In this document: positions 41,935 to 62,195 of the stretch, piece after piece
Position numbering within the stretch: position 1 is the first letter of the stretch
Layout of the letters: each line of letters begins with the position of its first letter
Sequence record: NC_000866.4
Direction: 5' to 3' (one strand)
Length of the DNA stretch: 64,000 bases
Source: Escherichia phage T4
Notes under the pieces: model-generated
The model's input: the letters and a program-made list of their open reading frames with translations, nothing else
The model's database searches: none
Told to the model about the DNA's origin: nothing
Program-made: the position numbers and the translations under genes

Positions 41935-41995
41935 ATAGTTGTATAGTACCATAAAGCTTTATGCTTGTAAACCGTTTTGTGAAAAAATTTTTAAA
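41935..41995 (-). promoter_or_regulatory. T4-type early promoter with A/T-rich upstream element
   Basis: minus strand AAAATTTTTTCACAAAACGGTTTACA, 17 nt, TACTATAC. Confidence 0.6.
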
Positions 41996-42002
41996 ATAAA
42001 AA

Positions 42003-42021
42003 AGGGGACCTCTAGGGTCCC
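42003..42021 (-). terminator. Rho-independent terminator after gene 32
   Basis: GGGGACC-ctaga-GGTCCCC followed by UUUUUUAUUUU on minus strand. Confidence 0.7.
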
Positions 42022-42044
42022 CAATTAATTAGTAATATAATCTA

Positions 42045-42950
42045 TTAAAGGTCATTCAAAAGGTCATCCAGGTCCGTGTCATCAGCACTAGATGAACTAC
42101 CAGAGCTTGAGCTCATAAAATCATCTTCAGTTTTTGTATTGAAGTCATCAACATTGAATGCATCCAAATCATCAGCCACTTTATCAGCTTTCTTAGCAGC
42201 AGTTGCAGCAGCACCGCCCATCACAGCAGTTCCCATAACTTGACCGAATTTAGTATTAAGTTCTTCAAACGATTTGAATTTATCTTTAGAAGTCATTTCA
42301 GAAAGGTCAACCATTTGTTCGAACAGTTCTTTCTGGAAAGATTCATCGTCAATGTTTGGAATCGCAGATTGATTCAGGAATTTAGATTCATCGTAGTTAC
42401 TAAATCCAGAAACTTGTTTAACTTTCAGTACAAAGTTAGCACCTTCCCACGGACAAGTTACATCAACTGGAGTTTCACCCATTTCAACATCAACCGCAAT
42501 CATTGCATTGATTTTATCCCAGATTTTCTTACCAAAGCGGTATTTAAATACTTTACCTTCGTTTTCTGGAGCAGCTGGGTCTTTTACTACAAGAATGTTA
42601 GCCCAGTAAGAAGTTTTACGTTTAACAAGACTGTACTCTTTATTGTCAGTGTTGTATAGATCATTTTTACTGATGTATTGACATACTGGGCAAGAATCGT
42701 AATCACCATGGGTAGATGAACATGTTTCAATATACCATTTACCATTTTTCTTGAAACCGTGATTTACAAGAATTGCGAATGGTGCTTGTTCATCATTTTT
42801 AGACGGAAGAAAACGAATTACTGCTTGACCGTTACCCGCATTATCGAGTTTCAGTTTCCACTCGCCTTTATCTTCAGAAGAAAAACCTTTATTGCCATTC
42901 AGTTTAGCCATTTGTGCAGCGAGTTCAGCAGTAGATTTACGTTTAAACAT
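42045..42950 (-). CDS. 32: Single-stranded DNA-binding protein gp32
   Basis: 301-aa ORF recognised as T4 gp32 ([23 protein letters not shown]...; acidic C-terminal tail). Confidence 0.96.
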
Positions 42951-43010
42951 TTTTATTTCCTTTTTAATTTAATTTAATTAACAGTTGGTGCTATGACACT
43001 TTACCTCATA
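42951..43010 (-). promoter_or_regulatory. gene 32 translational operator (pseudoknot plus unstructured A/U-rich leader)
   Basis: minus strand GCUAUGAGGUAAAGUGUCAUAGCACCAACUGUUAAUUAAAUUAAAUUAAAAAGGAAAUAAAA-AUG. Confidence 0.75.
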
Positions 43011-43638
43011 GCTGGCATAATTCGCAATACTCTGGGTCTTCGAGAGGTATCCAACCTGAGTTGAAATACTTTACCATCGATTTAGCAGTTGTATCAGTTA
43101 TATTTATATTACCTTTAACTCTTCGCCATCCAGGAGTTTTACCGTACAGATTAGAGGATAATAATAACACATAATTCTCGTAAGCAATATGAGATAATTT
43201 CCAAGACTCTATATTAGCTCGTGATGTTTTCCAAGGTCTAAAATCGTCACGGTTCATATAATTAGCCAATCTCATATGCTCTCTAACTTCCGGGTCTTTG
43301 GCTGGATGAGTTTCACCACTCACACCAAATCCACCACCAGCATATACCAGATTAAAATAGTCTGGATTATCTCTGGCATTTACTTCAAGTTGGTATTTTC
43401 GTTCTGCTTCAATAACATCCAAGTCATCATCAATTTGAATTATTTTAACGCTCGGTTTTTGAAGCATTAGCGCATTCAAAAATCTTTTTTGTTTACATGA
43501 GCTCCAGTATTCCTTTCCGGAAGAGTCATATATTATTCCGTTCTCAAATGAGCAATTTAATTTACTACCGATATAGTAGTATGGCGGAGTCTTATTTTTG
43601 ACACGGTCTTCAAATGTAAACCAATATACTATATTCAT
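43006..43638 (-). CDS. segG: GIY-YIG-family homing endonuclease SegG
   Basis: 210-aa ORF, ATG verified, between genes 32 and 59; motif YYYIGSK. Confidence 0.7.
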   Translation of the reverse strand: MNIVYWFTFEDRVKNKTPPYYYIGSKLNCSFENGIIYDSSGKEYWSSCKQKRFLNALMLQKPSVKIIQIDDDLDVIEAERKYQLEVNARDNPDYFNLVYAGGGFGVSGETHPAKDPEVREHMRLANYMNRDDFRPWKTSRANIESWKLSHIAYENYVLLLSSNLYGKTPGWRRVKGNINITDTTAKSMVKYFNSGWIPLEDPEYCELCQL

Positions 43639-43639
43639 A

Positions 43640-44293
43640 TCAATACTTGCAAGATTTCACAGTTTCAATGAAAACATTTTTAGCTTTCTGTGAATCAATA
43701 TTTAAAATTTTTCTATAAGCCTTTAACTTTATAGAATAATTATTCCAGACTAAATTATCAGTCTGTTCATCATGTTTATCAATTATATTTAAAAACGAAT
43801 CAAGCAAGATAAACGTCTCAAACGAAATTATGTTCGATTGCAGAAGTTTAAAAATATAACTTGATTGAACTTTTGGATTATACTCAAAAATTTCTTTAAA
43901 AGCAGAAACTTCAACTTTTTTACTAAAATAATAAATGTTGCGAATATCTTCTTCAAACTTAAATTTAATTTGCTTTAAGCGTCCGATATATTCACGATAA
44001 AACACAAGTGCATCAGCGTCAGAGATGTCACCAATCCAAGCATCTTGGTTAGCAACCAAATTGCTTATAAAGATTAAAGCAAGTTCCTTTAATTTATATT
44101 TTTCTGATAACTTCTGGAAAAAATACTTATCCCTTCGCTTTTGATAAGCGGCATCAGACACCCGCATGCACCAATTATACTTAATTACATCATACTTTCC
44201 ATTCATATGTTGTTTTATCATTAAGTATAATTTATAAACTGATTTACCATCAATGTATCTTTCACCACCAGCAGGCATGCGGAGTTTAATCAT
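43640..44293 (-). CDS. 59: gp59 helicase loader
   Basis: 217-aa ORF recognised as T4 gp59. Confidence 0.92.
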   Translation of the reverse strand: MIKLRMPAGGERYIDGKSVYKLYLMIKQHMNGKYDVIKYNWCMRVSDAAYQKRRDKYFFQKLSEKYKLKELALIFISNLVANQDAWIGDISDADALVFYREYIGRLKQIKFKFEEDIRNIYYFSKKVEVSAFKEIFEYNPKVQSSYIFKLLQSNIISFETFILLDSFLNIIDKHDEQTDNLVWNNYSIKLKAYRKILNIDSQKAKNVFIETVKSCKY

Positions 44294-44628
44294 AGTAGAA
44301 AATCTAATGTATTAGTTTTTTCACAACGAACAACAGAAGGACGTAAAAGATTTTCGTCAATAGCTTCTGACTGAATTTTTTCAATTATACCCGAAGGAAT
44401 AAATTTAGCAAATTGAGTTTCAGGAATAGAATTTTCTTCTAAGAATGCTGTTGTAGCTTCAAGATAACTCATTCCAAACTCTTCTACCATTTTTTCAATA
44501 ATAAATCCATTTTCTTGGCGGTCAAGAAGCTTTGCTATTTCATCCTTTTCTTTCTTAATTGAAAGTTCTTTTTCTGAAAGACCGGTCTCATCGACCGGAC
44601 GAATATCATTTAGAGAAAACTGTGTCAT
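44290..44628 (-). CDS. 33: gp33 late transcription co-activator
   Basis: 112 aa from MTQFSLNDIRPVD...; track ORF extends 3 codons upstream. Confidence 0.85.
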   Translation of the reverse strand: MTQFSLNDIRPVDETGLSEKELSIKKEKDEIAKLLDRQENGFIIEKMVEEFGMSYLEATTAFLEENSIPETQFAKFIPSGIIEKIQSEAIDENLLRPSVVRCEKTNTLDFLL

Positions 44629-44875
44629 AAAGTTCAACTACCTCTTCAGTTTCAGCTTCAAACACATCACGGTTATCTTTATGATACAAAGCTAATAGAC
44701 GATTAAACATCTTACCATCAACGCCAAGTTCATCTTTAGCACGAATTCGAATATCTTTAATCAGTTCATTATAACCGGAAATTTTCAGTTTATGATCAGA
44801 TGCTTCTTTAATAAATTTAGCCAAGTCTTCGCCATGGATAGCTTCATCAAATTCAACCATTTCTTTTTTAGCCAT
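44606..44875 (-). CDS. dsbA: DsbA double-stranded DNA-binding protein
   Basis: 89-aa ORF at the T4 dsbA position, overlapping gene 33 start. Confidence 0.8.
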   Translation of the reverse strand: MAKKEMVEFDEAIHGEDLAKFIKEASDHKLKISGYNELIKDIRIRAKDELGVDGKMFNRLLALYHKDNRDVFEAETEEVVELYDTVFSK

Positions 44876-44883
44876 TATTCACC

Positions 44884-45801
44884 TCAAAATTCATTAATGC
44901 TATTAGTTAATTTAGAAAGACCCGCTTTTACAAAATATGAATAAATTTTGCCACGCGGTGGTAATTTATATGAATTATAGTAATTCACAATGTTTGAAGC
45001 AATATTATCAGGAATATAATCAAAATCAATTAGAACTAAATTTTCTTTATAACGATTATATTCAGATTCAGTGAGAAGCACCTTAGCTTGCTCACGGTCA
45101 TTAGCAATAGCTTCAACGATTGAAGTTTTCATTGAAGGAGTTCGTTCACCTTCAACTCTGGTAAACCAAAAGTCAGATCGTACTTTAACTGAAGCAACGT
45201 TATCCTTTTTGTCGCCTTTAAGGATTTTAGTCATACAGTCAATTTCAGCAGAACCGCTTTTAATTTTAACCCATTTCTTATGCATCGGAGACCATTGCTT
45301 AACATTTGGATATTTGTGAAGCTGAGTAAAGTCACCATCTGACGAAATGATTAAAATCTTATGTCCTTCTAAAGAGAACTTTTTAACAAGAACAGCAATG
45401 TGGTCATCTGCTTCATACTTATCAATATCCATAACAATGTATGGCATATAAGCTTTCAATTCATCTATAACTTTATGGCTGGATTCAAAATAACCTTCCC
45501 AGTCCCAAGTAGATTCTTCTCGTGCTTTTCCACGGTTTTTCTTATAATAATAAGCGAAATCACGACGCCAATATCCAGATTTCGCGTTATCAATACACAG
45601 TACAATTTTAGTGTATCCAAGCGTTTTTGCTTTTTTGACATTAAACTTAATTGAGTTCAATATCAAATGACGAACCATTGATAAATTAATTTTTTCTTTA
45701 TCTGGGAAGTTTACCAAAGCAGTTGAAAGCGCAATTTGACTAAAGTCAATTAAGCAGATTCCTTCTTTGTAATCTTCATCCAACATCATTTCTAAATCCA
45801 T
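44884..45801 (-). CDS. rnh: RNase H (5-prime to 3-prime exonuclease / flap endonuclease)
   Basis: 305 aa from MDLEMMLDEDYKEGICLIDFSQ; track ORF extends 5 codons upstream. Confidence 0.9.
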   Translation of the reverse strand: MDLEMMLDEDYKEGICLIDFSQIALSTALVNFPDKEKINLSMVRHLILNSIKFNVKKAKTLGYTKIVLCIDNAKSGYWRRDFAYYYKKNRGKAREESTWDWEGYFESSHKVIDELKAYMPYIVMDIDKYEADDHIAVLVKKFSLEGHKILIISSDGDFTQLHKYPNVKQWSPMHKKWVKIKSGSAEIDCMTKILKGDKKDNVASVKVRSDFWFTRVEGERTPSMKTSIVEAIANDREQAKVLLTESEYNRYKENLVLIDFDYIPDNIASNIVNYYNSYKLPPRGKIYSYFVKAGLSKLTNSINEF

Positions 45802-45863
45802 ATGAACCTCGTTCAATTAGTGAGATTTCTATTATATACCATCCAAATCTTAAAGTAAACAAG

Positions 45864-45871
45864 TATAAATA
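45864..45871 (+). promoter_or_regulatory. Late promoter TATAAATA upstream of gene 34
   Basis: exact TATAAATA about 35 nt upstream of the ATG. Confidence 0.6.
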
Positions 45872-45905
45872 CTTATTATTGAAAACACAATAGGAGCCCG
45901 GGAGA

Positions 45906-48900
45906 ATGGCCGAGATTAAAAGAGAATTCAGAGCAGAAGATGGTCTGGACGCAGGTGGTGATAAAATAATCAACGTAGCTTTAGCTGATCGTACCGTAGG
46001 AACTGACGGTGTTAACGTTGATTACTTAATTCAAGAAAACACAGTTCAACAGTATGATCCAACTCGTGGATATTTAAAAGATTTTGTAATCATTTATGAT
46101 AACCGCTTTTGGGCTGCTATAAATGATATTCCAAAACCAGCAGGAGCTTTTAATAGCGGACGCTGGAGAGCATTACGTACCGATGCTAACTGGATTACGG
46201 TTTCATCTGGTTCATATCAATTAAAATCTGGTGAAGCAATTTCGGTTAACACCGCAGCTGGAAATGACATCACGTTTACTTTACCATCTTCTCCAATTGA
46301 TGGTGATACTATCGTTCTCCAAGATATTGGAGGAAAACCTGGAGTTAACCAAGTTTTAATTGTAGCTCCAGTACAAAGTATTGTAAACTTTAGAGGTGAA
46401 CAGGTACGTTCAGTACTAATGACTCATCCAAAGTCACAGCTAGTTTTAATTTTTAGTAATCGTCTGTGGCAAATGTATGTTGCTGATTATAGTAGAGAAG
46501 CTATAGTTGTAACACCAGCGAATACTTATCAAGCGCAATCCAACGATTTTATCGTACGTAGATTTACTTCTGCTGCACCAATTAATGTCAAACTTCCAAG
46601 ATTTGCTAATCATGGCGATATTATTAATTTCGTCGATTTAGATAAACTAAATCCGCTTTATCATACAATTGTTACTACATACGATGAAACGACTTCAGTA
46701 CAAGAAGTTGGAACTCATTCCATTGAAGGCCGTACATCGATTGACGGTTTCTTGATGTTTGATGATAATGAGAAATTATGGAGACTGTTTGACGGGGATA
46801 GTAAAGCGCGTTTACGTATCATAACGACTAATTCAAACATTCGTCCAAATGAAGAAGTTATGGTATTTGGTGCGAATAACGGAACAACTCAAACAATTGA
46901 GCTTAAGCTTCCAACTAATATTTCTGTTGGTGATACTGTTAAAATTTCCATGAATTACATGAGAAAAGGACAAACAGTTAAAATCAAAGCTGCTGATGAA
47001 GATAAAATTGCTTCTTCAGTTCAATTGCTGCAATTCCCAAAACGCTCAGAATATCCACCTGAAGCTGAATGGGTTACAGTTCAAGAATTAGTTTTTAACG
47101 ATGAAACTAATTATGTTCCAGTTTTGGAGCTTGCTTACATAGAAGATTCTGATGGAAAATATTGGGTTGTACAGCAAAACGTTCCAACTGTAGAAAGAGT
47201 AGATTCTTTAAATGATTCTACTAGAGCAAGATTAGGCGTAATTGCTTTAGCTACACAAGCTCAAGCTAATGTCGATTTAGAAAATTCTCCACAAAAAGAA
47301 TTAGCAATTACTCCAGAAACGTTAGCTAATCGTACTGCTACAGAAACTCGCAGAGGTATTGCAAGAATAGCAACTACTGCTCAAGTGAATCAGAACACCA
47401 CATTCTCTTTTGCTGATGATATTATCATCACTCCTAAAAAGCTGAATGAAAGAACTGCTACAGAAACTCGTAGAGGTGTCGCAGAAATTGCTACGCAGCA
47501 AGAAACTAATGCAGGAACCGATGATACTACAATCATCACTCCTAAAAAGCTTCAAGCTCGTCAAGGTTCTGAATCATTATCTGGTATTGTAACCTTTGTA
47601 TCTACTGCAGGTGCTACTCCAGCTTCTAGCCGTGAATTAAATGGTACGAATGTTTATAATAAAAACACTGATAATTTAGTTGTTTCACCTAAAGCTTTGG
47701 ATCAGTATAAAGCTACTCCAACACAGCAAGGTGCAGTAATTTTAGCAGTTGAAAGTGAAGTAATTGCTGGACAAAGTCAGCAAGGATGGGCAAATGCTGT
47801 TGTAACGCCAGAAACGTTACATAAAAAGACATCAACTGATGGAAGAATTGGTTTAATTGAAATTGCTACGCAAAGTGAAGTTAATACAGGAACTGATTAT
47901 ACTCGTGCAGTCACTCCTAAAACTTTAAATGACCGTAGAGCAACTGAAAGTTTAAGTGGTATAGCTGAAATTGCTACACAAGTTGAATTCGACGCAGGCG
48001 TCGACGATACTCGTATCTCTACACCATTAAAAATTAAAACCAGATTTAATAGTACTGATCGTACTTCTGTTGTTGCTCTATCTGGATTAGTTGAATCAGG
48101 AACTCTCTGGGACCATTATACACTTAATATTCTTGAAGCAAATGAGACACAACGTGGTACACTTCGTGTAGCTACGCAGGTCGAAGCTGCTGCGGGAACA
48201 TTAGATAATGTTTTAATAACTCCTAAAAAGCTTTTAGGTACTAAATCTACTGAAGCGCAAGAGGGTGTTATTAAAGTTGCAACTCAGTCTGAAACTGTGA
48301 CTGGAACGTCAGCAAATACTGCTGTATCTCCAAAAAATTTAAAATGGATTGCGCAGAGTGAACCTACTTGGGCAGCTACTACTGCAATAAGAGGTTTTGT
48401 TAAAACTTCATCTGGTTCAATTACATTCGTTGGTAATGATACAGTCGGTTCTACCCAAGATTTAGAACTGTATGAGAAAAATAGCTATGCGGTATCACCA
48501 TATGAATTAAACCGTGTATTAGCAAATTATTTGCCACTAAAAGCAAAAGCTGCTGATACAAATTTATTGGATGGTCTAGATTCATCTCAGTTCATTCGTA
48601 GGGATATTGCACAGACGGTTAATGGTTCACTAACCTTAACCCAACAAACGAATCTGAGTGCCCCTCTTGTATCATCTAGTACTGGTGAATTTGGTGGTTC
48701 ATTGGCCGCTAATAGAACATTTACCATCCGTAATACAGGAGCCCCGACTAGTATCGTTTTCGAAAAAGGTCCTGCATCCGGGGCAAATCCTGCACAGTCA
48801 ATGAGTATTCGTGTATGGGGTAACCAATTTGGCGGCGGTAGTGATACGACCCGTTCGACAGTGTTTGAAGTTGGCGATGACACATCTCATCACTTTTATT

Positions 48901-49775
48901 CTCAACGTAATAAAGACGGTAATATAGCGTTTAACATTAATGGTACTGTAATGCCAATAAACATTAATGCTTCCGGTTTGATGAATGTGAATGGCACTGC
49001 AACATTCGGTCGTTCAGTTACAGCCAATGGTGAATTCATCAGCAAGTCTGCAAATGCTTTTAGAGCAATAAACGGTGATTACGGATTCTTTATTCGTAAT
49101 GATGCCTCTAATACCTATTTTTTGCTCACTGCAGCCGGTGATCAGACTGGTGGTTTTAATGGATTACGCCCATTATTAATTAATAATCAATCCGGTCAGA
49201 TTACAATTGGTGAAGGCTTAATCATTGCCAAAGGTGTTACTATAAATTCAGGCGGTTTAACTGTTAACTCGAGAATTCGTTCTCAGGGTACTAAAACATC
49301 TGATTTATATACCCGTGCGCCAACATCTGATACTGTAGGATTCTGGTCAATCGATATTAATGATTCAGCCACTTATAACCAGTTCCCGGGTTATTTTAAA
49401 ATGGTTGAAAAAACTAATGAAGTGACTGGGCTTCCATACTTAGAACGTGGCGAAGAAGTTAAATCTCCTGGTACACTGACTCAGTTTGGTAACACACTTG
49501 ATTCGCTTTACCAAGATTGGATTACTTATCCAACGACGCCAGAAGCGCGTACCACTCGCTGGACACGTACATGGCAGAAAACCAAAAACTCTTGGTCAAG
49601 TTTTGTTCAGGTATTTGACGGAGGTAACCCTCCTCAACCATCTGATATCGGTGCTTTACCATCTGATAATGCTACAATGGGGAATCTTACTATTCGTGAT
49701 TTCTTGCGAATTGGTAATGTTCGCATTGTTCCTGACCCAGTGAATAAAACGGTTAAATTTGAATGGGTTGAATAA
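45906..49775 (+). CDS. 34: Long tail fibre proximal subunit gp34
   Basis: 1289-aa ORF; size and position match T4 gp34; internal repeats such as TPKKL...TATETRRG. Confidence 0.95.
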   Translation: MAEIKREFRAEDGLDAGGDKIINVALADRTVGTDGVNVDYLIQENTVQQYDPTRGYLKDFVIIYDNRFWAAINDIPKPAGAFNSGRWRALRTDANWITVSSGSYQLKSGEAISVNTAAGNDITFTLPSSPIDGDTIVLQDIGGKPGVNQVLIVAPVQSIVNFRGEQVRSVLMTHPKSQLVLIFSNRLWQMYVADYSREAIVVTPANTYQAQSNDFIVRRFTSAAPINVKLPRFANHGDIINFVDLDKLNPLYHTIVTTYDETTSVQEVGTHSIEGRTSIDGFLMFDDNEKLWRLFDGDSKARLRIITTNSNIRPNEEVMVFGANNGTTQTIELKLPTNISVGDTVKISMNYMRKGQTVKIKAADEDKIASSVQLLQFPKRSEYPPEAEWVTVQELVFNDETNYVPVLELAYIEDSDGKYWVVQQNVPTVERVDSLNDSTRARLGVIALATQAQANVDLENSPQKELAITPETLANRTATETRRGIARIATTAQVNQNTTFSFADDIIITPKKLNERTATETRRGVAEIATQQETNAGTDDTTIITPKKLQARQGSESLSGIVTFVSTAGATPASSRELNGTNVYNKNTDNLVVSPKALDQYKATPTQQGAVILAVESEVIAGQSQQGWANAVVTPETLHKKTSTDGRIGLIEIATQSEVNTGTDYTRAVTPKTLNDRRATESLSGIAEIATQVEFDAGVDDTRISTPLKIKTRFNSTDRTSVVALSGLVESGTLWDHYTLNILEANETQRGTLRVATQVEAAAGTLDNVLITPKKLLGTKSTEAQEGVIKVATQSETVTGTSANTAVSPKNLKWIAQSEPTWAATTAIRGFVKTSSGSITFVGNDTVGSTQDLELYEKNSYAVSPYELNRVLANYLPLKAKAADTNLLDGLDSSQFIRRDIAQTVNGSLTLTQQTNLSAPLVSSSTGEFGGSLAANRTFTIRNTGAPTSIVFEKGPASGANPAQSMSIRVWGNQFGGGSDTTRSTVFEVGDDTSHHFYSQRNKDGNIAFNINGTVMPININASGLMNVNGTATFGRSVTANGEFISKSANAFRAINGDYGFFIRNDASNTYFLLTAAGDQTGGFNGLRPLLINNQSGQITIGEGLIIAKGVTINSGGLTVNSRIRSQGTKTSDLYTRAPTSDTVGFWSIDINDSATYNQFPGYFKMVEKTNEVTGLPYLERGEEVKSPGTLTQFGNTLDSLYQDWITYPTTPEARTTRWTRTWQKTKNSWSSFVQVFDGGNPPQPSDIGALPSDNATMGNLTIRDFLRIGNVRIVPDPVNKTVKFEWVE

Positions 49776-49783
49776 GAGGTATT

Positions 49784-50902
49784 ATGGAAAAATTTATGGC
49801 CGAGTTTGGACAAGGATATGTCCAAACGCCATTTTTATCGGAAAGTAATTCAGTAAGATATAAAATAAGTATAGCGGGTTCTTGCCCGCTTTCTACAGCA
49901 GGACCATCATATGTTAAATTTCAGGATAATCCTGTAGGAAGTCAAACATTTAGCGCAGGCCTCCATTTAAGAGTTTTTGACCCTTCCACCGGAGCATTAG
50001 TTGATAGTAAGTCATATGCCTTTTCGACTTCAAATGATACTACATCAGCTGCTTTTGTTAGTTTCATGAATTCTTTGACGAATAATCGAATTGTTGCTAT
50101 ATTAACTAGTGGAAAGGTTAATTTTCCTCCTGAAGTAGTATCTTGGTTAAGAACCGCCGGAACGTCTGCCTTTCCATCTGATTCTATATTGTCAAGATTT
50201 GACGTATCATATGCTGCTTTTTATACTTCTTCTAAAAGAGCTATCGCATTAGAGCATGTTAAACTGAGTAATAGAAAAAGCACAGATGATTATCAAACTA
50301 TTTTAGATGTTGTATTTGACAGTTTAGAAGATGTAGGGGCTACCGGGTTTCCAAGAGGAACGTATGAAAGTGTTGAGCAATTCATGTCGGCAGTTGGTGG
50401 AACTAATGACGAAATTGCGAGATTGCCAACTTCAGCTGCTATAAGTAAATTATCTGATTATAATTTAATTCCTGGAGATGTTCTTTATCTTAAAGCTCAG
50501 TTATATGCTGATGCTGATTTACTTGCTCTTGGAACTACAAATATATCTATCCGTTTTTATAATGCATCTAACGGATATATTTCTTCAACACAAGCTGAAT
50601 TTACTGGGCAAGCTGGGTCATGGGAATTAAAGGAAGATTATGTAGTTGTTCCAGAAAACGCAGTAGGATTTACGATATACGCACAGAGAACTGCACAAGC
50701 TGGCCAAGGTGGCATGAGAAATTTAAGCTTTTCTGAAGTATCAAGAAATGGCGGCATTTCGAAACCTGCTGAATTTGGCGTCAATGGTATTCGTGTTAAT
50801 TATATCTGCGAATCCGCTTCACCCCCGGATATAATGGTACTTCCTACGCAAGCATCGTCTAAAACTGGTAAAGTGTTTGGGCAAGAATTTAGAGAAGTTT
50901 AA
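49784..50902 (+). CDS. 35: Long tail fibre hinge protein gp35
   Basis: 372-aa ORF. Confidence 0.9.
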   Translation: MEKFMAEFGQGYVQTPFLSESNSVRYKISIAGSCPLSTAGPSYVKFQDNPVGSQTFSAGLHLRVFDPSTGALVDSKSYAFSTSNDTTSAAFVSFMNSLTNNRIVAILTSGKVNFPPEVVSWLRTAGTSAFPSDSILSRFDVSYAAFYTSSKRAIALEHVKLSNRKSTDDYQTILDVVFDSLEDVGATGFPRGTYESVEQFMSAVGGTNDEIARLPTSAAISKLSDYNLIPGDVLYLKAQLYADADLLALGTTNISIRFYNASNGYISSTQAEFTGQAGSWELKEDYVVVPENAVGFTIYAQRTAQAGQGGMRNLSFSEVSRNGGISKPAEFGVNGIRVNYICESASPPDIMVLPTQASSKTGKVFGQEFREV

Positions 50903-50907
50903 ATTGA

Positions 50908-50930: not shown

Positions 50931-50933
50931 CTT

Positions 50934-54600: not shown

Positions 54601-54719
54601 CTCATACCCACACGGTAGCAATTGGATCACATGGTCATACTATCACTGTAAATAGTACAGGTAATACAGAAAACACGGTTAAAAACATTGCTTTTAACTA
54701 TATCGTTCGTTTAGCATAA
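51639..54719 (+). CDS. 37: Long tail fibre distal subunit / receptor-binding protein gp37
   Basis: 1026-aa ORF; C-terminal His-x-His repeat region (HSHS, HTHS, HSHY, HSHT, HSHS, HTHT, HGHT). Confidence 0.95.
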
Positions 54720-54723
54720 GGAG

Positions 54724-54741
54724 AGGGGCTTCGGCCCTTCT
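54724..54741 (+). other. RNA hairpin between genes 37 and 38
   Basis: GAGGGGC-ttcg-GCCCTTC. Confidence 0.4.
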
Positions 54742-54745
54742 AAAT

Positions 54746-55297
54746 ATGAAAATATATCATTATTATTTTGACACTAAAGAATTTTACAAAGAAGAAAATT
54801 ACAAACCGGTTAAAGGCCTCGGTCTTCCTGCTCATTCAACAATTAAAAAACCTTTAGAACCTAAAGAAGGATACGCGGTTGTATTTGATGAACGTACTCA
54901 GGATTGGATTTATGAAGAAGACCATCGCGGAAAACGCGCATGGACTTTTAATAAAGAAGAAATTTTTATAAGTGACATTGGAAGCCCGGTTGGTATAACT
55001 TTCGATGAGCCCGGCGAATTTGATATATGGACTGATGACGGTTGGAAAGAAGACGAAACATATAAGCGAGTTTTAATTCGTAATAGAAAAATTGAAGAAT
55101 TATATAAAGAGTTCCAAGTTTTAAATAATATGATTGAAGCTTCTGTCGCCAATAAAAAGGAAAAATTCTATTATAAAAACCTTAAGCGGTTCTTTGCTCT
55201 TTTAGAAAAGCATGAGCATTTAGGTGGTGAATTCCCTTCATGGCCTGAAAAAGAACAGAAGCCTTGGTATAAGCGTTTATTCAAGCATTACGTATAA
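54746..55297 (+). CDS. 38: gp38 tail-fibre assembly / receptor-recognition protein
   Basis: 183-aa ORF directly after gene 37. Confidence 0.88.
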   Translation: MKIYHYYFDTKEFYKEENYKPVKGLGLPAHSTIKKPLEPKEGYAVVFDERTQDWIYEEDHRGKRAWTFNKEEIFISDIGSPVGITFDEPGEFDIWTDDGWKEDETYKRVLIRNRKIEELYKEFQVLNNMIEASVANKKEKFYYKNLKRFFALLEKHEHLGGEFPSWPEKEQKPWYKRLFKHYV

Positions 55298-55300
55298 ATA
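55293..55300 (+). promoter_or_regulatory. Late promoter TATAAATA upstream of holin gene t
   Basis: exact TATAAATA then AAGGAGG ribosome-binding site. Confidence 0.6.
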
Positions 55301-55317
55301 TCTTAAAAGGAGGGTCT

Positions 55318-55974
55318 ATGGCAGCACCTAGAATATCATTTTCGCCCTCTGATATTCTATTTGGTGTTCTAGATCGCTTGTTCAAAGATAACGCTACCGG
55401 GAAGGTTCTTGCTTCCCGGGTAGCTGTCGTAATTCTTTTGTTTATAATGGCGATTGTTTGGTATAGGGGAGATAGTTTCTTTGAGTACTATAAGCAATCA
55501 AAGTATGAAACATACAGTGAAATTATTGAAAAGGAAAGAACTGCACGCTTTGAATCTGTCGCCCTGGAACAACTCCAGATAGTTCATATATCATCTGAGG
55601 CAGACTTTAGTGCGGTGTATTCTTTCCGCCCTAAAAACTTAAACTATTTTGTTGATATTATAGCATACGAAGGAAAATTACCTTCAACAATAAGTGAAAA
55701 ATCACTTGGAGGATATCCTGTTGATAAAACTATGGATGAATATACAGTTCATTTAAATGGACGTCATTATTATTCCAACTCAAAATTTGCTTTTTTACCA
55801 ACTAAAAAGCCTACTCCCGAAATAAACTACATGTACAGTTGTCCATATTTTAATTTGGATAATATCTATGCTGGAACGATAACCATGTACTGGTATAGAA
55901 ATGATCATATAAGTAATGACCGCCTTGAATCAATATGTGCTCAGGCGGCCAGAATATTAGGAAGGGCTAAATAA
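55318..55974 (+). CDS. t: Holin T
   Basis: 218-aa ORF with a single N-terminal TM segment (VAVVILLFIMAIVWY) and large periplasmic domain. Confidence 0.9.
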   Translation: MAAPRISFSPSDILFGVLDRLFKDNATGKVLASRVAVVILLFIMAIVWYRGDSFFEYYKQSKYETYSEIIEKERTARFESVALEQLQIVHISSEADFSAVYSFRPKNLNYFVDIIAYEGKLPSTISEKSLGGYPVDKTMDEYTVHLNGRHYYSNSKFAFLPTKKPTPEINYMYSCPYFNLDNIYAGTITMYWYRNDHISNDRLESICAQAARILGRAK

Positions 55975-56247
55975 TTATTTGTTCGTATACATCTCTAGAT
56001 ATCGATATACACCCTCAAAACCCTCGTTGAATTCGTCGATGAGGGTTTTCTTATCTTCTTGAGTTAATTCAGAAACAATTTTACGGAATGAATTTTGATT
56101 TAACTTTCTACCTTCATGCGTTACTCCAATCTCATTTAGAAATGCAATAAAATTAGCACGATTCTCAACAATATCTTCTCTGGAAAATTTAATCAAAATA
56201 GATGCAACAGTAATAATTTCACGAACTGTATCAATGTTTTTATTCAT
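55975..56247 (-). CDS. asiA: AsiA anti-sigma70 factor
   Basis: 90-aa ORF recognised as T4 AsiA (MNKNIDTVREIITVASILIKFSREDIVENRANFIAFLNEIG...). Confidence 0.93.
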   Translation of the reverse strand: MNKNIDTVREIITVASILIKFSREDIVENRANFIAFLNEIGVTHEGRKLNQNSFRKIVSELTQEDKKTLIDEFNEGFEGVYRYLEMYTNK

Positions 56248-56259
56248 TAACTATACCAC

Positions 56260-56412
56260 TCAATTAGTTGACTTTGTTATAATATCATCAGACGCTTGAT
56301 TTGTAAACTGGTCTGTGTAATTTTCTTCAAAAATTTTTTCTACGAATTCCTTGAACGATTCACGTTCCTGAGCTACATTATGCTCGATTACCTTTTCAAG
56401 ATTATGACTCAT
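56260..56412 (-). CDS. small acidic hypothetical protein (hand-read ORF)
   Basis: about 50-aa ORF MSHNLEKVIEHNVAQERESFKEF... between asiA and arn. Confidence 0.35.
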   Translation of the reverse strand: MSHNLEKVIEHNVAQERESFKEFVEKIFEENYTDQFTNQASDDIITKSTN

Positions 56413-56687
56413 TCGAAATAATCTTCAATTTCATAATCATGGACATAAATCATTATAGTTTTTAATACATCATCAATATTTTTTCCTGGAGCTGGAATTA
56501 CGTAAAAATACCCTGCTTTTGAGAGGTCTTTATAAGTTCCAATCAAGAAATCATTATTCTCAAGATGTAACTCTTCAACTAATTCATTGACAATTGAATG
56601 GTATAGGTTTGGCAGAAACTTATATAGCTTTTCTAGAATATCAATTTTGAATGTATATTGAACCACGGACTGAGAATCAATAATCAT
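56409..56687 (-). CDS. arn: Arn anti-restriction protein (McrBC inhibitor)
   Basis: 92-aa acidic ORF at the T4 arn position. Confidence 0.8.
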   Translation of the reverse strand: MIIDSQSVVQYTFKIDILEKLYKFLPNLYHSIVNELVEELHLENNDFLIGTYKDLSKAGYFYVIPAPGKNIDDVLKTIMIYVHDYEIEDYFE

Positions 56688-56770
56688 AGACCTTCCCCTT
56701 ATGTTTCTGTTTGCGATTAGATTCTTTAAACGCTTTCTTCTTATCCTTATGAACAGAAGCTTTATTAAAA

Positions 56771-56989
56771 TTATGCTTTGCGACTAAATTGTTCATAGTG
56801 CTGAATTACCTCTCTTAAACATTTGCATGTGAATGAAAACTTTTTAGCTACACCACATTCAAATATATGTTCTCTTAAATCGCGTGTATCGGTATATCCC
56901 ATCTCAACAATAAAATGCCGTATTAGATTTTTATCTTTATCGTTTAGAGAATTAAAATAATCAGATTTTGAATTAATTTCCCTGGCCAA
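56771..56989 (-). CDS. hypothetical protein (arn.1 position)
   Basis: 72-aa ORF with a CxxC-like cluster. Confidence 0.55.
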   Translation of the reverse strand: MAREINSKSDYFNSLNDKDKNLIRHFIVEMGYTDTRDLREHIFECGVAKKFSFTCKCLREVIQHYEQFSRKA

Positions 56990-57269
56990 ATTGAATCACC
57001 TTCAGTTGACGTTTTAACTCTTTTATCATCTCTTCGTTCATCGCAATATAAAGATCGCGTAGAGCAGGTTTTAGCATTCCATTTACTGGAGAACTAAATG
57101 GACATACATAATCTTTTCCTACGAGCTTTTTAGTGAATTCCATATCACAGAACTGAAATCCCGGCTCATTGGTATAAATTCCCCAATTAGTTGACATCAT
57201 TTTATTGGCATATTCCAGTGCCTGGATTTGATTCATAATTCCATCAATTTGAAACTTTTTAATATTCAT
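56973..57269 (-). CDS. hypothetical protein (arn.2 position)
   Basis: 98-aa ORF. Confidence 0.55.
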   Translation of the reverse strand: MNIKKFQIDGIMNQIQALEYANKMMSTNWGIYTNEPGFQFCDMEFTKKLVGKDYVCPFSSPVNGMLKPALRDLYIAMNEEMIKELKRQLKVIQFGQGN

Positions 57270-57727
57270 TAGTAAAGGTCCTCAGAGTAAAGTTCTTTTT
57301 CACTACCACGTTCAATACTTACTTGTCCAGCGTAAGTTGCAATAATCATTGCTTCTTCACGTGTCCAATAATTACTATATTGGTCAATAAACCCTTGGTC
57401 ATCATCACAAACTTGCTGAGTAACTAATTGAGGTTTAACTACATCTAAAACTTCTGCCATATCTTTAGAATAATGACGAGCACCTGGAATAATAAGAGTT
57501 CGTCCATCTTTTAATTTAAAACGGTTGGCTGCGCAAACAATTCGTCGTTGATACTTTTGGTTTTCATCCCAGTACGCAGTCTGCCAACAGATTTCAGGAA
57601 CTTCTTTCAGAATATCTTCTTCTGTGCATTTATAACCATGCGCTTTAAATTTTTCAACAAGACTTTCTGGAGTTTCACGAGATAAAGGAACATTCAGCAT
57701 TTTTAAACGATTGATAAATGGGTTCAT
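57269..57727 (-). CDS. hypothetical protein (arn.3 position)
   Basis: 152-aa ORF. Confidence 0.6.
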
Positions 57728-57930
57728 TTAAACCATCCTTTAATACGCTGCCACAAAGTTTTCTGTTGAGCTTTGTTGACGCCAATTGAGCGAATAACCG
57801 GTTGAGATTCCTGGAATTCTTTATAATCAGCAAGGTAAATTTCGTAAGCTGCATCCGTAAATGAACTTATCGCTGCCATAAAATTATTGCGAATACCTAC
57901 TGGAGCATCTTTACTTTCACGAATGATCAT
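57724..57930 (-). CDS. hypothetical protein (arn.4 position)
   Basis: 68-aa ORF. Confidence 0.5.
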
Positions 57931-58063
57931 GTATTTACCAGTCTTAATCTTTACGATAGTTCCAAGATAAGCTCCATGGTACCAAATATCCCAACCCTCT
58001 TGAGTAGGTTCTGCGCAACGACGAAGTTCATTGACAATTTCTAACTTGTTTATTATTTATTCC

Positions 58064-58699
58064 TCACAGTTCAGATGCTACAGTGATTACAGCTTCAATG
58101 TTTTCTGCCGAGCGTTTAATGTCAAGATACACATTACCGTTTTTAGCGATTTTACATGACATTCCGATGTCAGTAAATTTCTGAATATGATGTTCCATCA
58201 TTTTGTATCCAAAAATTCGCATATTTCCATTGTTATTAATTTCAAAATTACGAATTCCGTTAGTGCGTTTTTCTAAAATAGCAAGATAATTACTACGATA
58301 AATTTCAACCTTTTTAAGAACAAATCCATTTTTATCTAAAAGTTTTAACATGAGGTCTTTATCTTCTTCCATATCGGAAGTAATCTCGCGAGCTTTACGA
58401 GTTGCTCGTTTTTTCAGCAGTTCCGGAGCATTTTCCTGTGCATATAAAGTTGCTGCATTTGAAATAATATCCTGAGCTTCACCAGTAATGATTAATCCAT
58501 CACCAGATTTCTCCACCAGGCCTTTTTTAATCAATACCCCAATATTACTATTAACTACTGCGTTACCTAAATCTGGATGCACCTCACGAACTTCTGCAGC
58601 TGTAATGAAATCTTTCTTAGCAATGGTAATTAAAATCGTAGCAGTTTTTTCATTCAGAACATCGTTAGAAGCTTTGATGATGTAAGTTACTTTAGACAT
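58064..58699 (-). CDS. motA: MotA middle-promoter transcription activator
   Basis: 211-aa ORF recognised as T4 MotA. Confidence 0.92.
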   Translation of the reverse strand: MSKVTYIIKASNDVLNEKTATILITIAKKDFITAAEVREVHPDLGNAVVNSNIGVLIKKGLVEKSGDGLIITGEAQDIISNAATLYAQENAPELLKKRATRKAREITSDMEEDKDLMLKLLDKNGFVLKKVEIYRSNYLAILEKRTNGIRNFEINNNGNMRIFGYKMMEHHIQKFTDIGMSCKIAKNGNVYLDIKRSAENIEAVITVASEL

Positions 58700-58732
58700 T
58701 TTCTAATCTCCGTAATTCTGTATCAGTAGTTG

Positions 58733-58795
58733 ATAGTTGTATAGTACCACAGTATGCTTTGGTTGTAAACCGTTTTGTGAAAAAATTTTTAAAAT
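58733..58795 (-). promoter_or_regulatory. T4-type early promoter upstream of motA
   Basis: minus strand AAAATTTTTTCACAAAACGGTTTACA, 17 nt, TACTATAC; near-identical to the element at 41935-41995. Confidence 0.6.
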
Positions 58796-58800
58796 AAAAA

Positions 58801-58820
58801 AGGGAGAGCCTCGGCTCTCC
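58801..58820 (-). terminator. Rho-independent terminator downstream of gene 52 region
   Basis: GGGAGAGCC...GGCTCTCCC hairpin followed on minus strand by UUUUUUAUUUU. Confidence 0.65.
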
Positions 58821-58826
58821 CTAAAA

Positions 58827-58976
58827 TTACTGCATGACTGTGATAACTGTCATGATAACACGTTGAATTCCGAACGCAAGAAGACCTCCTGCTACGGCTG
58901 GAACAACGCCTAAACCCGCCAGTAAAATGCTACCAGATACTAATGCAGCGCTTGTAATACCAATGAATGGACTCAT
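58827..58976 (-). CDS. small hydrophobic membrane peptide (hand-read ORF)
   Basis: 49-aa ORF MSPFIGITSAALVSGSILLAGLGVVPAVAGGLLAFGIQRVIMTVITVMQ; start overlaps gene 52 stop. Confidence 0.4.
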   Translation of the reverse strand: MSPFIGITSAALVSGSILLAGLGVVPAVAGGLLAFGIQRVIMTVITVMQ

Positions 58977-60301
58977 TTGATTTCCTCTAAATCTTTGGTG
59001 TATTCAGTAACTACATCAGTAGTTTTCCAATATTCGTTTTCTTCTTTTTTAGCTTTAGCTTCTTCAGCAAGTTTCTTTGCTTCATCGGAAGTCATATGAA
59101 AAATATTCATTCCAACTAGTTTATCAACATAAGAAGAATACATATCGATTTTCGAAAGTTCTTCGGTCAGTTCTTTACGAGTTTTACCCTGTACAACAAT
59201 TTCACCTGAAATTACTTTCTTAATGAAATGTGCTTTGGCAAAGGCTAAACGAAAAGCTGACTCAGTTTCTTTAATTTTGTTATCAATTCGTTTTTGGACA
59301 TAAGTTTTACGAACTTCAACAAAGTCTTTAATTAAATCAACTACGTTATCGTAAACTTGCAGCTTTCCTTTCTCATTAATAACCGTAATATTCTGGGAAC
59401 GACGCTCAATCAGTCCGAAGTCTTTCATAATTTTTGCATGGCGTTCTTCTTCGTTATCGCTCAAAGAATATTCTTTGCGGAATTTAACTTTGAAGCCAAA
59501 ACCATGCTCACCACAAGCATCATCCCATGTAATGAAGCCTTTATTTTCAAGTGGGTCTAAGATTTTACTCACATAAGTTTCACGATCATACTTATACGGA
59601 ATCTCAGTGATATGCATTTGAGTTCGTGAAGTAAACTTATATGTTCCACGAATTTCATATTGCCCATCAATTTCAACGACTTCACCACGAAATTCTGGGA
59701 ATTCTACTTTCGGTTTAGTTACTTTCTTTCCTTGAAGAGCTTGCAGTACAGCTTTCTTGACAGAAGAAACACTATGAGGAAGAATGTAAGTTGCATAACC
59801 AGTTGCAATACCGGAAACGCCATTAAGAAGAACAGTAGGAATAATAGGCAAATAGAAAGCAGGCGGAATGTGTTCTTTATCTTGATGTACCGGAGCATAT
59901 TCAGTATCTTTATATACGTTATAGAAATTTTTACTTACACGAGCAAAAATATAACGACTTGCCGCTGCCTTTTGGACAGTACGAGAACCAAAGTTTCCTT
60001 GACCATCTAACAGAGGAAAGTTATTATTCCAAGTATTAGCCATCAAAGCACCTGCGTCTTGTGCAGAGTTTTCACCATGATGATATCCAAGGTCCGCTAC
60101 ACCACCTGCAATAGAAGCGAGTTTGTGAAACTTATCTTTATTTCCTCGTGCCAAATCAAGAGCTCGAGCAATAACAAATCGTTGAACTGGCTTAAATCCA
60201 TCAATCATATTTGGGATAGCACGATTTTCAACCGTGTACATAGCATAAGCCAATGCTTCATTATCAATGATACTTTTTAAATCGCGATTATTCAGTTGCA
60301 T
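58973..60301 (-). CDS. 52: DNA topoisomerase II medium subunit gp52
   Basis: 442-aa ORF with GyrA-like active-site region; recognised as T4 gp52. Confidence 0.93.
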   Translation of the reverse strand: MQLNNRDLKSIIDNEALAYAMYTVENRAIPNMIDGFKPVQRFVIARALDLARGNKDKFHKLASIAGGVADLGYHHGENSAQDAGALMANTWNNNFPLLDGQGNFGSRTVQKAAASRYIFARVSKNFYNVYKDTEYAPVHQDKEHIPPAFYLPIIPTVLLNGVSGIATGYATYILPHSVSSVKKAVLQALQGKKVTKPKVEFPEFRGEVVEIDGQYEIRGTYKFTSRTQMHITEIPYKYDRETYVSKILDPLENKGFITWDDACGEHGFGFKVKFRKEYSLSDNEEERHAKIMKDFGLIERRSQNITVINEKGKLQVYDNVVDLIKDFVEVRKTYVQKRIDNKIKETESAFRLAFAKAHFIKKVISGEIVVQGKTRKELTEELSKIDMYSSYVDKLVGMNIFHMTSDEAKKLAEEAKAKKEENEYWKTTDVVTEYTKDLEEIK

Positions 60302-60305
60302 AAAT

Positions 60306-60446
60306 TTACCATACTAGTGAATGTAGTGCCATAATAACATCAGAAATGAAAAGCACGACTTGAATTAATCCGAACATTACTCCGTAATATAGTGCTACCA
60401 ATAAAGCAGCAAGGGCTAATGAATAGCCCAAGATTTTCTTAATCAT
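60306..60446 (-). CDS. small hydrophobic peptide (52.1 position)
   Basis: 46-aa ORF MIKKILGYSLALAALLVALYYGVMFGLIQVVLFISDVIMALHSLVW. Confidence 0.4.
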   Translation of the reverse strand: MIKKILGYSLALAALLVALYYGVMFGLIQVVLFISDVIMALHSLVW

Positions 60447-60594
60447 TAGATAACAACACAAATGTTAAATATGCACACATACCCTGGGCTAAAGCTTGTG
60501 AAAACACACTGCTAGCATCGATACAGATAGTTAAAACACATGCTACTATCCAACAAATAAATGAAATAACTCCTAATAATTTTGCAATATTCAT
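60439..60594 (-). CDS. ac: small membrane protein, probably Ac (acridine sensitivity)
   Basis: 51-aa hydrophobic ORF MNIAKLLGVISFICWIVACVL...; size and position fit T4 ac. Confidence 0.5.
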   Translation of the reverse strand: MNIAKLLGVISFICWIVACVLTICIDASSVFSQALAQGMCAYLTFVLLSND

Positions 60595-60601
60595 ATTTTC
60601 C

Positions 60602-60682
60602 TCACTGGCGTCCGAAGACGCCTTTAGTTTTAAGATTGTTACGATAGAACTGCATCACGTGTTCGTTATGGAAATTACTCAT
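60602..60682 (-). CDS. stp: Stp peptide (suppressor of three-prime phosphatase; modulator of host EcoprrI/PrrC)
   Basis: 26-aa [29 protein letters not shown] matches the Stp peptide as recalled; ATG overlaps ndd stop by 1 nt. Confidence 0.85.
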
Positions 60683-61137
60683 TAATATGCCTGTAAAACA
60701 AATTTAAAGTTATCAGCCAACATACGGTTCATTTCTTCGAGTGTTTGATACTCAGAATGATGATTACGAGTAAACGCCAAAGCTAGCTGACCTTTTCCAA
60801 ATCCCGTCGTTAGAGGTTTCATCTTAGAAGCAGGCAGATAAAACACTGTGTATGGAACATTGTTATTTGCAATAGTACGCGCAAGTTGAGACCGGCGTTG
60901 ACGAATATGACTTAAAACCGCACTGAATCCTTGCTTAGAACGCTGATTACCTACATAAAATCGTGCAGATACGCATGGATTACTAAATGGACCACCGAGT
61001 TTACTCACTAAAAAGTAAAATCCAGGTTTAGATAAAATATCTTTATGCGGAGTTCCTAAAAACCATTCACCACCCTTGATTGTACCAATAACAGTAGCGC
61101 CTGCATCATTCAGATCAGTAACAGTCATATATTTCAT
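60682..61137 (-). CDS. ndd: Ndd nucleoid disruption protein
   Basis: 151 aa from [18 protein letters not shown]...; track ORF extends 16 codons upstream. Confidence 0.85.
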
Positions 61138-61197
61138 ATTAATTTCCTCTAAATTATTTTCTACTCCAAGGCCGCATGAATACACACGGCCATTAAA

Positions 61198-61413
61198 TTA
61201 CTCGTCGCAGTCGACGCTCAATTCCCAAAACTCTTCTACAGTATAAGTTTCAGTATCATTTTCAATACAGAAACGTTCATTACTATTATTTGCTAAAGTA
61301 GCATTAACTGTCATTTTTTCGCTAGTGCTCTTAAGAGGTGAAATACGAATTAACTGATCACCGTTATCTAAACAAAAAATTTCACCAACTTTTACATCTT
61401 TAAAACTTTTCAT
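61198..61413 (-). CDS. hypothetical protein (ndd.1 position)
   Basis: 71-aa ORF. Confidence 0.5.
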   Translation of the reverse strand: MKSFKDVKVGEIFCLDNGDQLIRISPLKSTSEKMTVNATLANNSNERFCIENDTETYTVEEFWELSVDCDE

Positions 61414-61421
61414 AATTCACC

Positions 61422-61529
61422 TCAAGGAGTATAAAATCCAAATGCAGTTGTTGACCATCCCATCCAATATGGAAAATTTACACCAATGTAAAACATAAGA
61501 ATATAAAACCAACCGCTCAGCAAATTCAT
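61422..61529 (-). CDS. small hydrophobic peptide (hand-read ORF)
   Basis: 35-aa ORF MNLLSGWFYILMFYIGVNFPYWMGW... Confidence 0.3.
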   Translation of the reverse strand: MNLLSGWFYILMFYIGVNFPYWMGWSTTAFGFYTP

Positions 61530-61732
61530 CATTTTACACCATTCCAAATTGTTTCAACCACGGATTTTAAACCATTTTGATGAATATCCATTCCTACTAC
61601 CGCCATCAAATAAATTCCAACTACAACTGAACCTAAGGCAAAAATCAGCATGAAAATGAATAAAGCCGGAAAAATATTATCGAAAAACCATTCAATAAAT
61701 GTAAAAGCACTGCGTTTACGTTCATATTTTCC

Positions 61733-61846
61733 TCACATAAATCCAAAGTAAACGTTTAATACATCAATCATTAAAACGATTGGGAATATACTCAAAACTA
61801 TTAGTATTATAACTACATTCCATATAGCTTTAATAATCTTTTTCAT
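61733..61846 (-). CDS. small membrane peptide
   Basis: 37 aa from ATG at 61846 (MKKIIKAIWNVVIILIVLSIFPIVLMIDVL...) with GGAGGA ribosome-binding site; longer track ORF would span the promoter. Confidence 0.45.
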   Translation of the reverse strand: MKKIIKAIWNVVIILIVLSIFPIVLMIDVLNVYFGFM

Positions 61847-61867
61847 TTTCTGTTCCTCCATAGTTGA

Positions 61868-61908
61868 TAGGGTAATAGTACCACGGAAGAACAGTCTTGT
61901 AAACAACT
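61868..61908 (-). promoter_or_regulatory. T4-type early promoter
   Basis: minus strand GTTTACA, spacer, TACTATTAC. Confidence 0.55.
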
Positions 61909-62147
61909 TTTTTAAAAATATTCGTAATAAATGTGAATACCAACTACTACCGCTGAAACCTGTGCAACCCACCACGCACAAGCAATAAGTACAGAATTCA
62001 AAATTTTCATAATAACCTCATTACAAAAGTAAATGTTAAACAAATTACTGGAATACTAATTAACCAAACAAAACACCACCATAATGAACTCATAGTTCAA
62101 TCTCAGCGATTTTCATTTTATTCTCCAAATCCGTATCAGTAGTTGAT

Positions 62148-62195
62148 AGTTGTATAGTACCACGGTCCTTGTGGTATGTAAACTGTTTTGTGAAA
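62148..62195 (-). promoter_or_regulatory. T4-type early promoter immediately downstream of denB
   Basis: minus strand CACAAAACAGTTTACA, spacer, TACTATAC; shares a 31-nt identical block with 58718-58748. Confidence 0.55.

Follow-up and report, generated by a model that had tools for sequence, protein, structure and literature searches.

Hinton's review (2010, PMC2988021) calls the early promoters of Escherichia phage T4 'uber UP/-35/TGn/-10' promoters and assigns further consensus regions to them. In their consensus, positions -36 to -31 read GTTTAC, positions -40 to -44 are rich in A, and the sequence 5' of -12 is rich in G and T (Nolan et al. 2006, PMC1524935). The PeSL cassette combines a stem-loop terminator, a strong early promoter, and a Shine-Dalgarno sequence (SD) with ATG, and it lies beside variable open reading frames (ORFs; Arbiol 2010, PMC2839356; Comeau 2014, PMC4122927). 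The PeSL consensus for PST/T4 is TTTACW-N17-TAYWAT, with stem-loops upstream and SD and ATG 3' of it, and reporter assays with phi1/RB49 cassettes showed promoter and terminator activity (PMC2839356; PMC4122927). Here we analyze three cassette sites on the minus strand, the early-gene strand, of a 64-kb stretch of the T4 genome (NC_000866.4; hereafter, the window). According to the annotated record, S1 lies between the gene 32 stop codon and frd.3, S2 between motA.1 and motA, and S3 between denB and ndd.6. We are highly confident that they are three of T4's very strong early (immediate-early) promoters, of the PeSL type, two of them placed right after terminators. As such, the feature is already known: it is a textbook T4 element and is covered by the PeSL literature.

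The window spans ~105-169 kb of T4, and its final base aligns with the rIIB end. In comparisons with several T4 records, a 1-kb segment around S2 showed 100% identity and a segment around S1 99.9%. The T4T record (HM137666) was used as the annotation reference; a T4T coordinate equals the window position + ~104,917.

The initial annotation of the window had reported near-identical minus-strand blocks at three sites. These blocks were recovered: the 16-mer CACAAAACRGTTTACA occurs exactly three times in the window, always on the minus strand (41966-41981, 58764-58779, and 62177-62192), with a chance expectation of 0.15 matches when two mismatches are allowed. The composite motif GTTTAC-N18-TACTATAC is also exact at all three sites. 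A repeat search independently recovered the same families. In this search S1 and S2 were 79% identical over 98 nucleotides (nt), terminator included, and S2 and S3 were 83% identical over 69 nt.

The identity is distributed differently in the two pairs. In S1 and S2, one identical stretch runs from the T tract of the terminator to the end of the -35 element, and a second one covers 18 nt around the -10 element. The 26-mer AAAATTTTTTCACAAAACGGTTTACA is exact at 41966-41991 (S1) and 58764-58789 (S2) only; its S3 counterpart reads AAAAAATTTCACAAAACAGTTTACA (also given as AAAAAATTTCACAAAACAG), with a shorter T run and a G>A exchange. S2 and S3 share the 31-mer GTGGTACTATACAACTATCAACTACTGATAC, which had no matches in shuffled sequences. 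The 31-nt identity had been noted before and is exact, but the coordinates first assigned to it were off by 2 nt and 1 nt. It corresponds to the following feature.

58720-58750 and 62133-62163, minus strand: 31-nt block common to S2 and S3, covering TGn, the -10 element, and the start region and extending ~15 nt into the leader.

The similarity between the sites is mosaic. The conserved flanking blocks are 100% identical, whereas the 17-bp spacers are unrelated (41-47% identity), so that none of the three arose by simple recent copying of another in its entirety. The description of the cassettes as near-identical therefore holds for their modules and not for entire cassettes. In addition, S3 has no terminator and differs in its A/T tract.

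All three sites have the same order of elements: an A/T tract, CACAAAACnG, the -35 element GTTTACA, a 17-bp spacer ending in TGG, the -10 hexamer TACTAT, and ACAACTATC. A leader of ~35-40 nt, an SD, and an ATG follow downstream. The -35 element agrees with GTTTAC(A/T) at ~-36 to -31, and the downstream part agrees with a spacer of 17 +/- 1 bp, TGn, and TAnnnT. Each site is intergenic and located on the early strand, with SD and ATG shortly downstream. The transcription start (+1) is predicted to be the A seven bases past the -10 hexamer, as judged from the spacing. The core elements are listed below.

41972-41992, minus strand: S1, UP-like block AAAAATTTTTTCACAAAACGG, one mismatch to AAAWWTWTTTTNNAAAA.
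41943-41971, minus strand: S1, core promoter with -35 TTTACA at 41966-41971 and -10 TACTAT at 41943-41948.
~41936, minus strand: S1, predicted +1 A, placed by spacing; the frd.3 ATG is at 41897-41899.
58770-58790, minus strand: S2, UP-like block AAAAATTTTTTCACAAAACGG, identical to the S1 block.
58741-58769, minus strand: S2, core promoter of motA with -35 TTTACA at 58764-58769, -10 TACTAT at 58741-58746, and a spacer ending in TGG.
~58734, minus strand: S2, predicted +1, placed by spacing.
62183-62202, minus strand: S3, upstream region without terminator, in which the denB TAA (62200-62202) merges into an A/T tract and CACAAAACAG.
62154-62182, minus strand: S3, core promoter with -35 TTTACA at 62177-62182, -10 TACTAT at 62154-62159, and predicted +1 at ~62147.

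The S1 spacer contains the palindrome CATAAAGCTTTATG before its terminal TGG, and the S3 spacer, which also ends in TGG, contains the inverted repeat TACCAC-N7-GTGGTA. Upstream of the -35 element, all sites are A/T rich. The sequence AAAWWTWTTTTNNAAAA is reportedly the consensus of the full Escherichia coli UP element (rrnB P1 type), published by Estrem and colleagues in 1998. The S1 and S2 blocks differ from it by one mismatch, with the register relative to the -35 element shifted by 1-2 nt. At S3 the agreement is partial: the A tract begins within the denB stop codon and reads A6T3 followed by CACAAAAC, with a shorter T run.

The combination of a UP-like tract, GTTTACA, a 17-bp spacer, TGG-TACTAT, and an early-strand ORF just downstream supports the assignment as early promoters, which had already been made in the initial annotation. 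S1, S2, and S3 thus share with the described T4 early promoters the organism, the architecture, and the early-strand placement directly 5' of early genes. Assignment to a different promoter class was also considered. Middle promoters, too, have a sigma-70-type -10 element, and in T4 promoters of different classes are often stacked before one gene, so that MotA-dependent middle or gp55-dependent late promoters might be located here. However, the MotA box (TGCTTYA-N11-13-TAnnnT, centered at -30) is present at none of the three sites, and the late motif TATAAATA (-13 to -6) has 13 matches in the window, none of them within the cassettes. In addition, the canonical -35 GTTTACA is present, whereas middle promoters have no -35 element (PMC2988021). 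Both readings were rejected by these motif searches at S1, S2, and S3, and we assign them a negligible probability.

Two of the three promoters directly follow a strong hairpin. The hairpins at S1 and S2 are GC rich, located 3' of a stop codon, and each followed by the T tract TTTTTTATTTT; they were the top minus-strand matches of the terminator scan.

42004-42022, minus strand: S1, terminator hairpin of gene 32 (GGGGACC-CTAGA-GGTCCCC), -14.3 kcal/mol; T tract at 41993-42003, gene 32 stop codon at 42045-42047.
58801-58822, minus strand: S2, terminator hairpin after motA.1 (AGGGAGAGC-CGAG-GCTCTCCCT), -17.9 kcal/mol, z = -3.8.
58791-58800, minus strand: S2, T tract; motA.1 stop codon at 58827-58829.

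The statement that two copies sit immediately after a strong terminator was therefore correct, and their arrangement as terminator-promoter insulators agrees with canonical intrinsic terminators and with the composite cassette published as PeSL. The terminator after gene 32 is conserved in five of six T4-like genomes (Nolan et al. 2006, PMC1524935). Upstream of S3, folding detected no terminator hairpin (-4.2 kcal/mol, z = -0.8). Thus, S1 and S2 share with PeSLs the composite plan of terminator, sigma-70-like promoter, and SD/ATG, whereas S3 differs from it in having no upstream stem-loop and only a 6-bp inverted repeat in the spacer.

Several points weigh against the assignment of all three sites to PeSL-type early promoters. 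The A/T tract of S3 does not match the UP consensus at one or fewer mismatches, and this site also lacks the terminator. The +1 positions of S1, S2, and S3 are predictions from spacing. Recombination between cassettes, which belongs to the PeSL concept, is suggested by sequence patterns rather than by direct observation. Finally, in the AT-rich DNA of the window, a scan with generic sigma-70 hexamers was not enriched over shuffles; what supports the promoter assignment is therefore the extended conserved blocks with their context, not the hexamers alone.

The leaders of S2 and S3 carry SDs of the RegB target type.

58697-58734, minus strand: S2, unstructured leader; the GGAG SD at 58708-58711 is a RegB cleavage site, and the motA ATG is at 58697-58699.
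62090-62147, minus strand: S3, leader with GGAGAATAAAA (62116-62126), a perfect RegB consensus, followed by a mini-ORF at 62090-62116.

MotA is an early product, and RegB cuts the motA mRNA within the SD (Hinton 2010, PMC2988021). Both the motA SD GGAGATTAGAA and the S3 SD GGAGAATAAAA fit the RegB/S1 target GGAGRAYARAA (this S1 is not our site). Compared to the described targets (Durand et al. 2006, PMC1702504), the S3 SD is the optimal 11-nt site, and motA with GGAGATTAGAA is a documented good substrate. The frd.3 leader differs from these in having GAGG and no GGAG, and it is therefore probably not a RegB target. A literature search on initiation at the three sites returned nothing for ndd.6. 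According to a recent preprint, frd.3 is among the most abundant T4 RNAs capped with nicotinamide adenine dinucleotide, which are primary transcripts starting at a +1 A; this fits initiation at S1.

The exact 31-nt identity of S2 and S3 extends ~15 nt into the transcript, and imm.1 and e.8 have the same leader. The shared transcribed extension might therefore be a structured RNA in the 5' leader with a regulatory role. The leaders, however, folded no better than shuffles (z of +0.3 to +0.6), and no Rfam family was found in the window between 40000 and 64000; on these grounds the structured-RNA reading was rejected. RegB/S1 moreover requires single-stranded RNA and needs no specific sequence 5' of GGAG. 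We thus consider a structured leader element very improbable.

The three sites belong to a larger promoter family. A family scan covered T4T 1-78 kb and the window, leaving out T4 ~78-105 kb (the late-gene block). It revealed 38 early-strand sites of the form GTTTAC[AT]-N17-TAnnnT, almost all of which immediately precede ORFs. Accordingly, the three members proposed initially are present, but further members exist in the window and elsewhere in T4. Two of those in the window are as follows.

61875-61903, minus strand: early promoter 5' of ndd.4 (GTTTACA-N17-TGGTACTAT), wider family.
41211-41239, minus strand: early promoter between frd.2 and frd.1 (GTTTACA-N17-TGATACTAT), wider family, also found in the repeat search.

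In many T4 early promoters, the spacer forms an inverted repeat with the first transcribed bases, so that the paired segments bracket the -10 element, as in GGGTA...TACCC and GATGAGGTA...TACCTCATC. This corresponds to the PeSL subclass with a stem-loop overlapping the -10 element. Such repeats were seen at window positions 41211-41239 and 28399-28427 and at T4T ~73,549, 73,916, 70,337, 65,778, 20,597, and 57,976.

Terminator-then-promoter pairs were also found 5' of nrdC.10, mrh.2, and mobD.5 and at window position 25406. At the last of these (25378-25439, minus strand), the terminator GGACTCCTTCGGGAGTCC and TTTTTTATTTT, the same T tract as at S1 and S2, are followed by the early promoter aaagttGTTTACA-N17-TAGTAT.

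Within the family, S1, S2, and S3 belong to a subtype with at least six copies in T4, located 5' of frd.3 (S1), motA (S2), ndd.6 (S3), imm.1, nrdC.10, and e.8. In these six members TTTCACAAAACnGTTTACA and TGGTACTATACAACTATC are invariant. Specific to the subtype are CACAAAACnG, located at ~-46 to -37, and ACAACTATCAACTACTGATAC as start region and leader (the start region is also written ACAACTATCAACTAC). In comparison to the general T4 early consensus, the subtype has a longer invariant upstream block, TTTCACAAAACnG, and a longer invariant start region, ACAACTATC.

The invariance of both blocks in six promoters, together with the recurrence of the upstream block in RB69 and in a Jiaodavirus phage, raises the question of whether CACAAAACnG and ACAACTATCAACTACTGATAC carry a signal beyond polymerase recognition, for example for Alt-dependent stimulation or for the shut-off of early promoters. 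Reviews call the early shut-off and the Alt effect not understood, and T4 early promoters do have extra consensus regions. Nevertheless, the upstream block is within one mismatch of the UP consensus, so that no additional factor is required. Most other T4 early promoters, which are of the same class, use aaaGTTG upstream and a different leader. Furthermore, in a mutational analysis of T4 P8.1 and Ptac, no single position accounted for the Alt effect. We regard such an additional signal as unlikely, and slightly less likely still that the promoters of frd.3, motA, ndd.6, imm.1, nrdC.10, and e.8 form a sub-class separately regulated via the invariant cis blocks. If this were true, the blocks would be a cis signal for unexplained T4 biology, namely the stimulation by Alt-modified polymerase or the abrupt shut-off.

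Conservation in relatives was considered at the motA and ndd.6 sites. Yersinia phage fPS-90 keeps the S2 and S3 cassettes; its depositors labeled both 'predicted early promoter' and the S2 hairpin 'terminator'. RB69 belongs to a different genus, and its motA region shows ~71% DNA identity to T4 (blastn). Upstream of RB69 motA, a hairpin is followed by TTTTTTTCTCACAAAACAGTTTACA, an unrelated N17 spacer, and TATTAT within TGATATTAT, and the remaining intergenic DNA is diverged. The motif GTTTACA-N17-TGnTAYTAT is also retained 5' of motA in a Jiaodavirus, a Karamvirus, and a Serratia phage; it is absent at the motA position in one Tegunavirus phage. At the orthologous site, the blocks contacted by the polymerase have thus been retained and the intergenic DNA around them has not, which speaks for selection.

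The downstream edge of the cassette (~+4) is a site at which relatives gain or lose small ORFs. At S2, the locus of phage Paracelsus (locus positions 4641-5110, orthologous to window ~58700-58830) carries two additional elements between the cassette and motA, a 75-codon ORF and a second early promoter. This insertion is flanked by the direct repeat CTATCAAATAAATGAACTGAAAC, and its layout is of the PeSL type. The product of the Paracelsus ORF was compared with frd.3, as both have 75 amino acids, but homology was rejected (E = 0.75). At S3, the cassette is followed by an 87-codon ORF in T6, fPS-90, Paracelsus, and ~430 other Tequatrovirus records. The S3 cassette edge is also where the indels between T4, T6, and fPS-90 begin. 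In T4, a deletion between two AATGAAA repeats has removed the body of the 87-codon ORF. What remains is an unannotated 8-codon mini-ORF, MKIAEIEL* (62090-62116, minus strand), with a stop overlapping the ndd.6 start (ATGA). As described for PeSLs, S2 and S3 thus have variable ORFs and indel junctions beside them.

Among the T4 early promoters, a comparison of modules showed a background spacer identity of 0.32 +/- 0.14. Against this background, the frd.3 and nrdC.10 spacers are identical (14/14), and the imm.1 and ndd.4 spacers nearly so (13/14). The leaders of imm.1 and S3 are the same (25/25), with identity continuing through the first four codons, and the upstream blocks of S1 and S2 are identical (24/24). 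The alt.-3 and alc promoters, too, have identical spacers at non-orthologous loci. Upstream, spacer, and leader modules assort independently among T4 loci. This pattern is compatible with the recombination between copies described for PeSLs.

Two of these cases extend beyond the spacer. The cassette between nrdC.11 and nrdC.10 (T4T ~55,383; locus ~5434-5536) is an almost complete copy of S1, ~91 kb away from it. Over ~73 nt, including the T tract, the upstream block, the spacer, and the -10 block, it differs by one mismatch and one indel, and it is joined to a leader of the S3/T6 type. The promoters of alt.-3 and alc (window 18161-18189 and 31404-31432, minus strand; TTTACAAGTCCCTCGTGTTGTGTTATAGTAGTCTTACT(A/G)ACATAACATGAGGA) are near-identical and agree from the -35 element through ~+30, spacer included; their upstream regions are unrelated.

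These observations bear on the possibility that the cassettes are chiefly portable recombination modules, spread by PeSL shuffling and gene conversion, and that they stay near-identical mainly through repeated copying and not through selection for promoter strength. In its favor, otherwise freely varying spacers are identical at non-orthologous loci (frd.3 and nrdC.10, alt.-3 and alc, and nearly imm.1 and ndd.4), and the leaders of imm.1 and S3 match into the coding sequence. The Paracelsus ORF lies between two promoters with direct repeats at the S2 cassette edge, and the T4/T6/fPS-90 indels begin at the edge of S3. Mini-circles have been published for RB49/phi1, as has a PST/T4 exchange beside S3 (PMC2839356; PMC4122927); the latter, at ndd.4/.5, was illustrated as an example (Comeau et al. 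2014, PMC4122927). On the other hand, the conserved blocks are exactly those contacted by the polymerase, and their persistence across genera at motA, where the flanks diverge, requires selection. The unrelated spacers of S1, S2, and S3 speak against simple recent copying of whole cassettes, and the T4 deletion 3' of S3 used an AATGAAA microhomology within the ORF and not a second cassette. In addition, mini-circle formation was demonstrated for RB49/phi1 and not for these T4 copies. We see an even chance that the cassettes matter chiefly as such modules. This reading is plausible; it complements the interpretation as early promoters and does not exclude promoter function.

Apart from the promoters, the plus strand at window positions 47307-48232 contains diverged direct repeats of several families, with lengths of 30-68 nt and spacings of 108-681 nt. 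By its coordinates, we take this region to be the long-tail-fibre gene 34, and the repeats presumably correspond to repeated protein motifs.

Returning to the early promoter cassettes, their anatomy, copy number, modular sharing, conservation across genera, and indel junctions at the edge were observed here; promoter and terminator activity and RegB cleavage are taken from the literature. On this basis, the following model can be proposed. Upon DNA entry, S1, S2, and S3 would be read by the sigma-70 RNA polymerase of E. coli, either unmodified or modified by Alt. The polymerase would recognize a stack of all known recognition elements, consisting of a UP-like tract contacted by the alpha C-terminal domains, the -35 element, the 17-bp spacer, TGn, the -10 element, and the start region. 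A short unstructured leader would then lead to the SD, which in motA and ndd.6 would double as the site of RegB cleavage, so that the genes would be expressed in the first minutes of infection only. Read-through from the preceding unit (gene 32 for S1 and the 52/motA.1 unit for S2) would be stopped by the terminator of that unit, and transcription would restart independently. The near-identity of the cassettes could have two causes. Selection may keep the polymerase-contacting blocks near their optimum while the spacers drift, and recombination between cassettes may shuffle upstream, spacer, and leader modules, as published for PeSLs.

Beyond the confirmation of the annotation, the significance of these results is small, as T4 early promoters and PeSL cassettes have been studied for decades. 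The details added are a six-member subtype with two invariant blocks, the independent assortment of upstream, spacer, and leader modules, and the cassette edge at ~+4 as a point of ORF gain and loss. They illustrate the published model of modular shuffling within the reference T4 genome and leave this model unchanged.

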